DNA of 64,000 bases from Candidatus Poribacteria bacterium (GTDB lineage: Bacteria; Poribacteria; WGA-4E; WGA-3G): contig CAXXUA010000004.1 of NCBI GenBank assembly GCA_963663765.2, forward strand, positions 416,001 through 480,000, read 5' to 3'. The first letter of the stretch is position 1, and each line of letters opens with the position of its first letter. The notes under the pieces were generated by a model, which was not told the DNA's origin, made no database searches, and was given only the letters and a program-made list of their open reading frames with translations. Of the stretch, positions 1,318 to 3,813 are shown piece by piece. The position numbers and the translations under genes were made by a program.

Positions 1318-1964
1318 CTAATTTTGTTCTGCAGTTTTAAAACCGTAAATCTCAATTTCACGAATTCTGCCTGGTCTATGCATAGGTGTGCTAATATTGG
1401 AAATAACTGTTCTATCAAGCCTTCCTGAACCTAATAAGGTACTAAATGTAAATGTTTTTGACTTTTGAACAGGTGAATTAAAAGTTCTCAATATACGAAT
1501 CTTTATCTGATTAGTATAATATGGCTTCCTTAGTTTAAGGTCGATTATTTTAGACCTTACATCCCGCATCTCTATAATATGTTCCCAATTTTCTCCTTTT
1601 GCCCTTTTACCCTCATTCACATATACAACAAAATGTTTTAAATTATCCGAGTGAAGTATAATCCTATAGATTTTTTTCCTTTCTGGTAATGAAACAACCA
1701 CTATAGAATCATTTCGGAAAAATTCTGCATTATCCTTCGCTGCAGACACTTTTGCTGCATACTCTTTATTATTGATGTTAACGATAACGCTGCTTCTCCT
1801 ATAGTCTCAAAATTTCCATCAATCATTTCCGGACTCGTTGATTGTACTCCATCCATAAGTGCATAATTATTACTCCATTCTTGTGCTGAAAAAATCGTGC
1901 TACATCCAGTAATCATACAAGAAATACAAAACATAAAGAAGCAATCGAAACATTTATTGAACAT
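1318..1964 (-). pseudogene. frameshifted lipoprotein, paralog of 42853 and 43685 genes
   Basis: ORF 1701-1964 has a lipobox (ITGC) and QEWSNNYALMDGV; ORF 1318-1749 has LPERKKIYRIILHSDN and IREIEIYGFK; frame change near 1780-1790. Confidence 0.75.
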
Positions 1965-2021
1965 AGTCTATCCGATGATATTAACCTGTATATTTCCGTG
2001 CGATGCTGTGCATTTCACATC

Positions 2022-3671
2022 TTATACGGTTTGCAAGTTGCTTATAGAAAGCAACCAGGGTTCATCTACCAAAGCACGCAAAAATATCCCGCGTGCGCCA
2101 TTTAAGTCTCTGTCCATCTTGAGTCCCATGCTATCTTTTATTATCTTTCGTCCACCGAGTGATTTTCTAATCTCACCATTCCACGAAACTGTTTTTGATG
2201 TGTATGCTTCACAGACATCAATGACGAGACATCCAGTCTCTTTCGCTTTGTGCTTTAGAAAATGTTTGAATCTGTAGTGCGACAGTGTCAACATTTGTCG
2301 GGCAGACTTCTTGTGTAGTTTGCGGTTTCCACGCATTACCATATCTGAAGTCTCAAAAGTAGGGAGTAGGATAATATCAAAGGTATCCACAAGGAAACGT
2401 GCTATTTTATGATGCAACTCGTCAACAAGATATCTGATACGTTTTCTGATGCGATTTGCAGCACGTCTCATATTCTTGCGTGATTGTTGTGTCGCTTTTA
2501 TTGCACGGGATAAAAGATTATCAAGGTATGAACAAAGTCTTTGAATCCGATTGATAGCATGGTGTCCAAGCCATCCGAAACCACGCTCATGGAAATATGT
2601 GAGGAATGTTCTCACGCCAGGGTCTAAAGCAACAACACTTCCGTTTGGTTTTCGCTTCGGAGTTGTCACAGTATAGGAAACACAGAGATAGTATTTATCA
2701 TTCTCTTTCACGAGGCGTGAGTCACAGATATTATCAGGTAACATCTCTGACATTTTGAGATCACCAAGCACTGTGTGATAAACACCGCGAGGTTTTATAG
2801 CAGACTTTGGTATGAAAATACTATCTGATGGATGACGTTTGGATTTGAAAAAAACAGACTGATATTGACCTGTTTTCTTGCATTTTCGCTTTGCTTCTCG
2901 GACAGCAATACAAGCGTCACGGATAGCAACAGATTTCACTTGATACGGTGTTTCTTTGCTCCAATCAGGAAGATCGTGAAGAATACCTGTTTTTATCGCT
3001 TTCCAATTCGCTTTTGTGTCTGTTTCGTTCAACAAAGCAATTGTTTTATTATAAGTAAAACGTGCTGTGCCAAACCACTGACGCAGTGTTTCACGTTGTT
3101 CTGTTGTCGGATAAACTCTTATCTTCTTTGATTTTGTCACGGTAACTTCGGAGTCCGTGCATTCTGTAACTGAAGACGTGCAGGATTGCGAGAAGATCCG
3201 ACGTGAGTTCTTCTTGCGGACTGTGTTCTGTTTGATCGAGAACCACGAGTTCGCCACCGTTTTGTTCAATGAGGTATTGTATAAGGTCGATACCGAAGCG
3301 GGCGAGTCTATCCCGATGGGCAATAACAACTTGGAGCTTATCACCTTGCATAAGCCGTTCCAATAAGGTTCTAAGCCCTTTTCTTTTGAAGTTGATTCCG
3401 CTTCCGATGTCTCGGATAACTTCTGCTTCGGGGTAGATACTTCGCATATATTCAACTTGTCGTTCAAGGTCTTCTCTTTGCTTTGTGCTGGATACTCTGC
3501 AGTAGCAAACAGTTGCAATTGATGTGGATTTGCTTTTGATGTATCCGTCAACATCATAGCGTCTGTGTCCGCCTCCTGTGCGGATAATATCAATCTTTCC
3601 TTCATTTGCCAACCTCCGTAAATGGTCAGGTGTATAATCCAGCAGCTCACTTGCTTTGCGCGCTGATACAT
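2022..3671 (-). CDS. tnpB: TnpB RNA-guided endonuclease, Fanzor-like clade (start uncertain)
   Basis: KIRVYPT HTH start; RuvC-I VALDPGVRTF; CEAYTSKT; RuvC-III DRDLNGARGI. Confidence 0.9.
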   Translation of the reverse strand: MYQRAKQVSCWIIHLTIYGGWQMKERLILSAQEADTDAMMLTDTSKANPHQLQLFATAEYPAQSKEKTLNDKLNICEVSTPKQKLSETSEAESTSKEKGLEPYWNGLCKVISSKLLLPIGIDSPASVSTLYNTSLNKTVANSWFSIKQNTVRKKNSRRIFSQSCTSSVTECTDSEVTVTKSKKIRVYPTTEQRETLRQWFGTARFTYNKTIALLNETDTKANWKAIKTGILHDLPDWSKETPYQVKSVAIRDACIAVREAKRKCKKTGQYQSVFFKSKRHPSDSIFIPKSAIKPRGVYHTVLGDLKMSEMLPDNICDSRLVKENDKYYLCVSYTVTTPKRKPNGSVVALDPGVRTFLTYFHERGFGWLGHHAINRIQRLCSYLDNLLSRAIKATQQSRKNMRRAANRIRKRIRYLVDELHHKIARFLVDTFDIILLPTFETSDMVMRGNRKLHKKSARQMLTLSHYRFKHFLKHKAKETGCLVIDVCEAYTSKTVSWNGEIRKSLGGRKIIKDSMGLKMDRDLNGARGIFLRALVDEPWLLSISNLQTV

Positions 3672-3678
3672 AAGTCAT
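3091..3678 (-). CDS. tnpA: IS607 transposase (MerR-like HTH + serine recombinase)
   Basis: RTGGGHRRY HTH; YCRVSS catalytic motif; DIGSGINFKRKGL; HRDRLARFG. Confidence 0.95.
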   Translation of the reverse strand: MTYVSARKASELLDYTPDHLRRLANEGKIDIIRTGGGHRRYDVDGYIKSKSTSIATVCYCRVSSTKQREDLERQVEYMRSIYPEAEVIRDIGSGINFKRKGLRTLLERLMQGDKLQVVIAHRDRLARFGIDLIQYLIEQNGGELVVLDQTEHSPQEELTSDLLAILHVFSYRMHGLRSYRDKIKEDKSLSDNRTT

Positions 3679-3813
3679 GTATATAGTAGCACATAAATAT
3701 CAAGGAATGTCAAGAAATATGTAGATATTTAGATACTGTCACTCTACCTTTTTGTTAATTTAGATATAATAAAGATTTACATAATTTGGTCTGAAGGTGA
3801 ATGCAGTATTAGA

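Follow-up and report, generated by a model that had tools for sequence, protein, structure and literature searches.

The window (the whole 64,000-nt stretch of Candidatus Poribacteria DNA that was analysed) carries a multi-copy IS607 element in which a pro-Fanzor TnpB occupies the +1 frame inside the transposase gene tnpA. This frame is under selection, which keeps it open in related elements of bacteria, phages and giant viruses. We consider it probable that a 527-aa nuclease is translated from a ribosome-binding site near tnpA codon 25 and that its overprinted part, as predicted, folds onto the core in the manner of the Fanzor2 RuvC-R subdomain. The extra N-terminal domain of Fanzor2 likely derives from this overprinted front third of tnpB.

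The element, its copies and its host

The element and its two genes are as follows.

1972..3748, minus strand: IS607-family element, GG to GG with one GG target-derived; junctions common to five copies
Left near 3748 and right ...ATCATCGG at 1972, minus strand: element ends
3091..3678, minus strand: tnpA, IS607 serine transposase, 195 aa, with MerR-like HTH and resolvase domain; YCRVSS motif intact
2022..3671, minus strand: longest tnpB ORF, 549 aa, +1 frame relative to tnpA
1972..2130, minus strand: putative omega/reRNA scaffold, placed by analogy with IS607 TnpBs (Yoon et al.) across the 3' end of tnpB and the right end of the element

The element is 1.78 kb long, with 1775 bp between the junctions in a comparison of five copies with differing flanks. 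These five genomic copies are 98.6-99.6% identical and occupy different sites, which implies recent mobility. All five junction pairs have GG cores and show no target duplication, and the left flank ends in RGG in 5/5 copies. According to the passages found in the literature, GG is the target of IS607 and GGG is the TAM of ApmFz2 and ISXfa1; the RGG flanks match both. RNA-library contigs from three studies (X1, X2, X10), which show presence only, span most of the element, and loose contig ends from RNA run X15 lie at 1972 and 3749/3750. The folding signal of the putative scaffold was weak (z -2.1, with 8/200 shuffles equally stable).

The host genome is bacterial (6.3 Mb) and not that of a eukaryote or eukaryotic virus, as a Fanzor2 host would be. 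The loci nearest to the TnpB core are from Poribacteria, with cyanobacteria next. A promoter consensus scan returned 2 sites vs 1.5 expected. Window positions 3679-3713 (minus strand), absent from the list of that scan, contain TTGACA, a 19-nt spacer and TG-n-TACTAT ending 4 nt before the tnpA ATG, without a Shine-Dalgarno sequence; judging by this arrangement, the tnpA mRNA may be leaderless.

Several observations concern the insertion sites. In 4/5 copies (window 1964-1972; C2, C5, C13), the GG target precedes a downstream ORF (87-295 codons), at 7-11 nt from its start codon. The reconstructed empty site AGG|A resembles the Shine-Dalgarno sequence of the downstream gene in the window, C2 and C5, and the right-end CGG may restore it. 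Downstream in the window (1318-1964, minus strand), a short ORF at 1701-1964 with a lipoprotein-like N-terminus overlaps another at 1318-1749, and the pair looks like a single gene split by a frameshift. In addition, a contig of run X10 (record 6) has, close to an AGG site within tnpA, an insertion of about 280 nt that ends in the right end of the element (compare window 3597-3599 and 1971-2042), possibly a non-autonomous mini-element.

TnpB core and catalytic signature

The core and its catalytic residues were located as follows.

2025..3134, minus strand: TnpB core (WED/REC/RuvC), without zinc-finger cysteines
2622-2624 (D of DPG), 2208-2210 (shifted E) and 2106-2108 (D), minus strand: TnpB catalytic residues

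The sequence-only reading had assigned this protein to the Fanzors and their IS607-associated bacterial relatives on the basis of DPG plus a relocated Glu, and the alignments bear out both features. The RuvC-I DPG (residue 350 of the long ORF) aligns to the DPG of ApmFz2 and is invariant in 32/32 homologs, and E488 in EAYTS, some six residues ahead of the zinc-finger position, aligns with the Glu of VNEYLTTKTC in ApmFz2; RDLNG follows at residue 521. The details noted earlier, namely IILLPTF at the usual RuvC-II Glu site, the Glu in CEAYTS and the missing CxxC, were likewise confirmed by alignment. IILLPTF aligns with canonical IIAVEDL, so the usual Glu is replaced by Pro, and TSKTVSWNG aligns with TTKTCSNCG of ApmFz2. 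The cysteine-free form TSKTVSW[NT]G extends across the bacterial alignment, which thus lacks a C4 zinc finger, and CxxC is present in 75/116 more distant extension-bearing proteins. Since the zinc-finger cysteines are missing, nuclease activity could be reduced. Bao and Jurka reportedly list a C4 zinc finger for TnpB/Fanzor. In the passages found, the two-feature definition of pro-Fanzors by Yoon et al. (bioRxiv 10.1101/2023.08.09.552727) leaves the finger out.

The best PDB match of TnpB was the mimivirus Fanzor2 9B0L (E 2.8e-25), from residue 170 on. Together with its IS607 setting, the protein groups with cyanobacterial elements and Fanzor2 in a quick tree (SH-aLRT 99 vs canonical TnpBs). 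Judged by its sequence, TnpB is of pro-Fanzor type with a catalytic triad, and RNA-guided cleavage is predicted. In four overlap-clade loci from Poribacteria (L139, L147, L151, L159), the first RuvC-I-like match in a scripted scan was CMDSG, not ALDPG.

Stop avoidance in the overlapping frame

TnpA is recognised by its own profiles (NF033518: 175 bits, E 1e-51, cut-off 110; PF00239 also matched). The ORF coordinates agree with the claim that a shifted tnpB frame overlaps tnpA for 581 nt without a stop. For this TnpA sequence and the codon usage of the host, the probability of zero +1 stops over the 193 overlapped codons is 7e-7, and only 29/7445 windows of 150 codons in host genes are open in +1.

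The query that fetched 80 loci (81 with the window) was the TnpB core alone, so the overlap had no part in their choice. In 77/80 of them tnpA is in the same register. Over the 150 codons before the core, 1 stop was seen in +1 vs 496 expected from synonymous-codon resampling in the 54/81 loci with intact tnpA; the other 27 were left out of this count as having a broken, frameshifted or cut tnpA, and several of them are rich in +1 stops (e.g., L039, L045, L059-L061, L064). The +1 stops of most homologs cluster in tnpA codons 1-29, and the conserved overlap is therefore about 150-170 codons.

IS607 loci picked by TnpA served as a control, with two loci with broken tnpA excluded. There, 17/24 loci of the overlap clade had no +1 stop (maximum 3 stops), vs 0/32 of the other IS607s, whose tnpAs had 4-16 stops each (mean 9.6); control tnpAs from the same phylum had no such open-frame pattern. 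The sequence-only reading had proposed a search for stop avoidance across homologs and had named common stops in the alternative frame as evidence against dual coding; avoidance was evident, and common stops were not found among the 54 intact loci. Chance or codon bias as the cause of the open frame was rejected on the P value above and on the stop counts in homologs and controls.

A similar arrangement was found in other sets. Among viral loci picked by core motifs (n=29), tnpA was in the same register in 28 and absent in 1. A second group of loci, in which CxxC is mostly present and giant-virus genome bins are represented, was retrieved by extension motifs and is therefore biased towards the trait; with a profile built solely on canonical TnpAs, a same-strand TnpA in the same register was detected in 101/101, and the tnpA body was free of +1 stops in 69/71 scorable loci. 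As the loci are related, these counts are not independent tests. The extension profile matches 1405 clusters at 50% identity.

Some loci depart from this arrangement. In L162 (NZ_CP020371.1), a non-DPG IS607, the tnpA +1 frame contains 7 stops and is nevertheless hit by the extension profile (E 3e-16); the TnpA of this locus may, by this match, be related to the overlap clade. Moorena loci (L044, L045, L048, L049, L053-L056 and others) have stops or frameshifts in tnpA and a TnpB core that aligns over most of its length, which suggests drift to non-autonomous elements. In viral loci L083, L090 and L103, tnpA matches only from profile position 70-93 on, just before the PYW motif; these are 5' deletions sparing the conserved part of the extension.

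Selection on the second-frame protein

Two conserved motifs lie in the overprinted part.

3318..3368, minus strand: overprinted motif 1, PYWN...ISSKLLLP; predicted helix, RuvC-R-like (pLDDT 90, model residues 11-20)
3237..3251, minus strand: overprinted motif 2, NSWFS; aligned to ApmFz2 N82-S83-W84-Y85 (pLDDT 86, model residues 51-60)

Four-fold-site divergence was 0.03-0.05 in tnpA codons 101-185, vs 0.156 in the tnpB core for the same pairs. It was less suppressed in codons 25-100 (0.07-0.14) and unsuppressed in codons 1-24 (0.15); in control elements the values were 0.37 vs 0.42. At the codon level, 35 dereplicated elements were compared. The second-frame residues Y81, L93 and P96 are fixed in 35/35, with varying TnpA residues beneath them: L/I105 gives Tyr, I/V/L117 gives Leu and A/T120 gives Pro in every element. 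Similarly, S120, W121 and F122 are fixed in 35/35 over TnpA I/L/V144, V/L/M145 and V146, which give Ser, Trp and Phe, respectively. The motifs also persist in L104, which has no tnpA, and in L300 and L301, whose tnpA contains a stop. These comparisons show that selection acts at the amino-acid level on the second frame, and both frames are open and under purifying selection.

There is only a very slim chance that TnpB starts at the core (e.g., at GTG 3140) and that an RNA or DNA element, or codon bias, accounts for the conservation of tnpA. Canonical TnpBs function without an extension, and one copy on a Nostoc plasmid has the short form in its RefSeq annotation. However, the constraint tracks second-frame amino acids while the nucleotides vary, stops are avoided over 150 codons, and same-phylum control tnpAs are without the pattern; moreover, 9/32 aligned homologs have no Val or Met at the position of GTG 3140.

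Where tnpB starts

The open frame contains an internal start with a ribosome-binding site.

2022..3605, minus strand: likely tnpB coding sequence, 527 aa from an SD-preceded ATG, 515-nt overlap with tnpA
3613..3617, minus strand: GGAGG Shine-Dalgarno-like site, 7 nt before ATG 3605, encoded by tnpA Arg-Arg codons

The anti-SD pairing at ATG 3605 is -10.2 kcal/mol. In 47/54 intact homologs a start codon precedes the core by 145-172 codons, with a pairing of -3.5 or stronger in 39. From these signals we infer that ATG 3605 is the likely start of tnpB, giving a 527-aa protein and a 515-nt overlap. ATG 3671 had been proposed as the point from which the frame is open, which holds for the window; as a likely start it gives way to 3605. 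The frame is open back to the 3671 position in only 8/54 intact homologs, and 3671 was rejected as a general start on that count.

In the second group, a second ATG lies within 30 nt before to 40 nt after the tnpA ATG in 56/71 loci (median +7; often ATGAATG), a placement that would fit leaky scanning in eukaryotic hosts. This ATG, present as at 3671 in the CxxC-intact giant-virus-like group, could also be taken to mean that TnpB is made from ATG 3671 or, through programmed +1 frameshifting, with the DNA-binding HTH of TnpA fused to it. The clustering of +1 stops in tnpA codons 1-29 would fit a shift just after them, and in one locus (L040) the interval tested contains no start codon. Set against the expected placement of a start codon and the SD-like pairing in most bacterial elements, and the few homologs open to 3671, both routes seem quite improbable, and we retain the internal start at 3605.

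Relation of the extension to the Fanzor2 N-terminal domain

In the passages found of Schargel et al. (PMC11832414), the N-terminal domain of ApmFz2 spans residues 53-130, with the RuvC-R part at 65-91 contacting the omegaRNA pseudoknot via Asn82 and Ser83; the extension is called unique to Fanzor2, and TnpA is not mentioned. The sequence-only reading had likened PYWN...LLLP...NSWFS to this N-terminus and proposed an HMM alignment to check it. The likeness held in structure, in full-length profiles and through intermediates, and not in direct profile comparison, where the similarity is weak. An extension-only profile searched against the PDB gave one chance match and none to Fanzor or 9B0L, and an NCBIfam search with the extension returned 0 families. 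Full-length profile alignments did place the motif, with SWF of NSWF on ApmFz2 S83-W84-Y85. Direct comparison of the extension with the N-terminus of the ApmFz2 clade (hhalign) was weak, with a probability of 2.6-8, and so was a later one (probability 24.8; score 21.6 vs a shuffle maximum of 19.1).

Short giant-virus Fanzor2s begin with KLWFP-x(11-12)-NSWF, and these sequences appear to bridge the extension and the ApmFz2 clade. The extension compared with the short-type N-terminus (unselected set A6) gave a probability of 84.5 (score 29.8; shuffle maximum 18.1), and short-type vs ApmFz2 clade gave 97.5. A short-type profile that included two overlap-type proteins gave an inflated 95% and was discarded; the value was 81% once both were removed.

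An AF2 model was built without templates from 135 overlap-type sequences, with ApmFz2-clade proteins left out. It has a pLDDT of 88; both motifs are confident and the loop between them is disordered. Much of residues 30-47 and 65-83 has pLDDT <50, as does the region matching the Fanzor2 basic thumb. With VIA-align, the model superposed on 9B0L with Z 28.6 and rmsd 3.4 over 414 residues (model 9-448 on chain 53-518, as ranges and not as a residue map). Against ISDra2 TnpB (8H1J), the match began only at model residue 85 (338 residues, Z 26.4), and a further comparison gave the same pattern. The model thus predicts a RuvC-R subdomain like that of Fanzor2.

It is also conceivable that the overlap is translated and selected and that the extension is not homologous to the ApmFz2 domain, W-x-P and NSWF having arisen twice or serving another role, e.g., TnpA binding. 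The weak direct profile scores, a motif spacing of about 25 vs 12 residues and an AU test that leaves the tree order unsettled are in line with this. However, the order of the motifs and their position before the WED domain are identical, the short-type proteins link both groups, and the template-free model superposes from chain residue 53, so that we regard independent origins as unlikely. The claim that a Fanzor2-like domain is overprinted on the recombinase gene is supported by stop avoidance, structure superposition and profiles.

Un-overlapped lineage and history

Short-type loci no longer have the overlap. Stops in the -1 frame number 8-18 around the motif in 12/13 of them (one not scored), and tnpA lies upstream on the opposite strand in 8/13, with 18-38 stops in its own +1 frame. 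A pattern scan of viral contigs gave no match for the ApmFz2 locus; mamavirus protein P0329 and loci L273-L297 were used in its place, and statements on its layout rest on these. L273 has the same divergent layout as the short-type loci, and L274, L277 and L282 have no tnpA in an overlapping frame.

The phylogeny that the sequence-only reading had called for set the group apart from canonical TnpBs, as given above. The quick tree (51 rows) also nested ApmFz2-type proteins among the overlap-type, and this part was not upheld: a separate overlap clade was not rejected by the AU test (p 0.92), and the constrained tree was 32 lnL higher. Because this test allows the two layouts as sister groups, the order of events rests on frame-age logic and not on the tree. 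A canonical-TnpA profile matches the overlapped frame, and the second frame is open in 0/32 control tnpAs. Every IS607 has the tnpA frame, whereas the second frame is not shared by all of them; on this ground, overprinting is the most plausible origin of the domain.

We lean slightly towards a fuller history, in which the Fanzor2 RuvC-R originated de novo from the second frame (+1) of an IS607 tnpA and then travelled as a dual-coding cassette in bacteria, in phages and in giant viruses. Its start would have been retuned from an internal SD to an ATG 4-7 nt behind the tnpA ATG, a placement compatible with leaky scanning, until separation and inversion of tnpA freed it towards mimivirus ApmFz2. 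If so, the steps leading from an overprinted frame to an independent RNA-contacting domain of a genome-editing nuclease could be traced. ApmFz2-type elements would later have separated the genes, with tnpA on the opposite strand, and lost about 11 loop residues.

Proposed working of the element

TnpA, initiated at 3678, and TnpB, initiated at 3605, would likely be translated from a single transcript. Transfer of the element from one GG site to another would fall to TnpA, as described in the passages found on IS607 TnpA (Chen et al., PMC6188088). By analogy with ApmFz2, TnpB with a right-end omegaRNA could cut the empty RGG|guide sites left by TnpA excision, so that retention of the element would be favoured; cutting of empty sites by other IS607 TnpBs is summarised in the available passages of PMC13565253. 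In the model, extension residues of about 1-78 are predicted to form a disordered tether that need only stay stop-free, and residues 80-96 and 119-128 a helix and a strand, whose motifs may brace RuvC and the RNA pseudoknot, with NSWF probably contacting the pseudoknot as in ApmFz2. The loop at 99-116 is predicted to be unstructured and lies over the conserved TnpA segment HRDRLARFG.

Comparison with known systems

Pro-Fanzors, the Fanzor2 N-terminal domain and overlapping IS607 ORFs in general are already known. The pro-Fanzor or TnpB2 proteins of IS607 elements described in the passages found of Yoon et al. share with the present TnpB the DPG, the Glu shifted beside the zinc-finger position, a serine TnpA and cyanobacterial relatives; the Poribacteria host and, in the present subclade, the absence of the zinc-finger cysteines are different. 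Those passages contain no tnpA/tnpB dual coding. ApmFz2 of Acanthamoeba polyphaga mimivirus (9B0L) is the best sequence and structure match, and is similar in catalytic layout, position of the NSW-aromatic motif and G-rich target flank. However, it is about 21% identical, retains CxxC and has a shorter W-x-P to NSW spacing, and its relatives with available DNA (L273, L274, L277, L282) differ in that no tnpA occupies the overlapping frame.

Canonical IS607, as far as the passages found describe it (PMC6188088; PMC3673617), has a tnpA-tnpB order, GG ends, no inverted repeats and two overlapping ORFs; the order and the GG ends are common to the present element. In contrast, the +1 frame of the tnpA body is closed in 32/32 control loci, and a near-full-length coding overlap is not given in those passages. 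In the part found of PMC3673617, Gilbert and Cordaux describe only an amoebal ORFB with 100 aa added at the N-terminus in comparison with ISArma1. Within the literature found, in part as excerpts and with ISfinder entries, figures, most supplements and subscription papers outside its scope, we found no account of a dual-coding region of 150-190 codons or of such an origin of the domain. Our results offer a likely origin for the N-terminal domain called unique in the structure paper.

The overlap also matters for annotation, which keeps one of the two frames. In a Nostoc plasmid record (L301, NC_003276.1), TnpB is annotated from the core only and the extension is dropped, although the frame is open through it; the same holds for L300 (OZ195714.1), and both have a stop in tnpA. 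Conversely, a Microcoleus phage (L299, OR578706.1) has an intact IS607 tnpA at 672-1187 that is unannotated under a 561-aa 'hypothetical protein', the long TnpB. Pro-Fanzors cloned from such records could be missing the segment that, by prediction, grips the guide RNA. The locking of the two genes may also constrain the evolution of the element and the setting of the TnpA:TnpB ratio.

Overprinted viral genes and a few long bacterial overlaps have a new frame on an older gene, with a largely disordered product and suppressed synonymous change. The present case differs from these known examples in that the overprint is the N-terminal extension of the next transposon gene and is free of the overlap in one lineage. 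It would be an example, widespread in nature, of overprinting giving rise to a structured domain.
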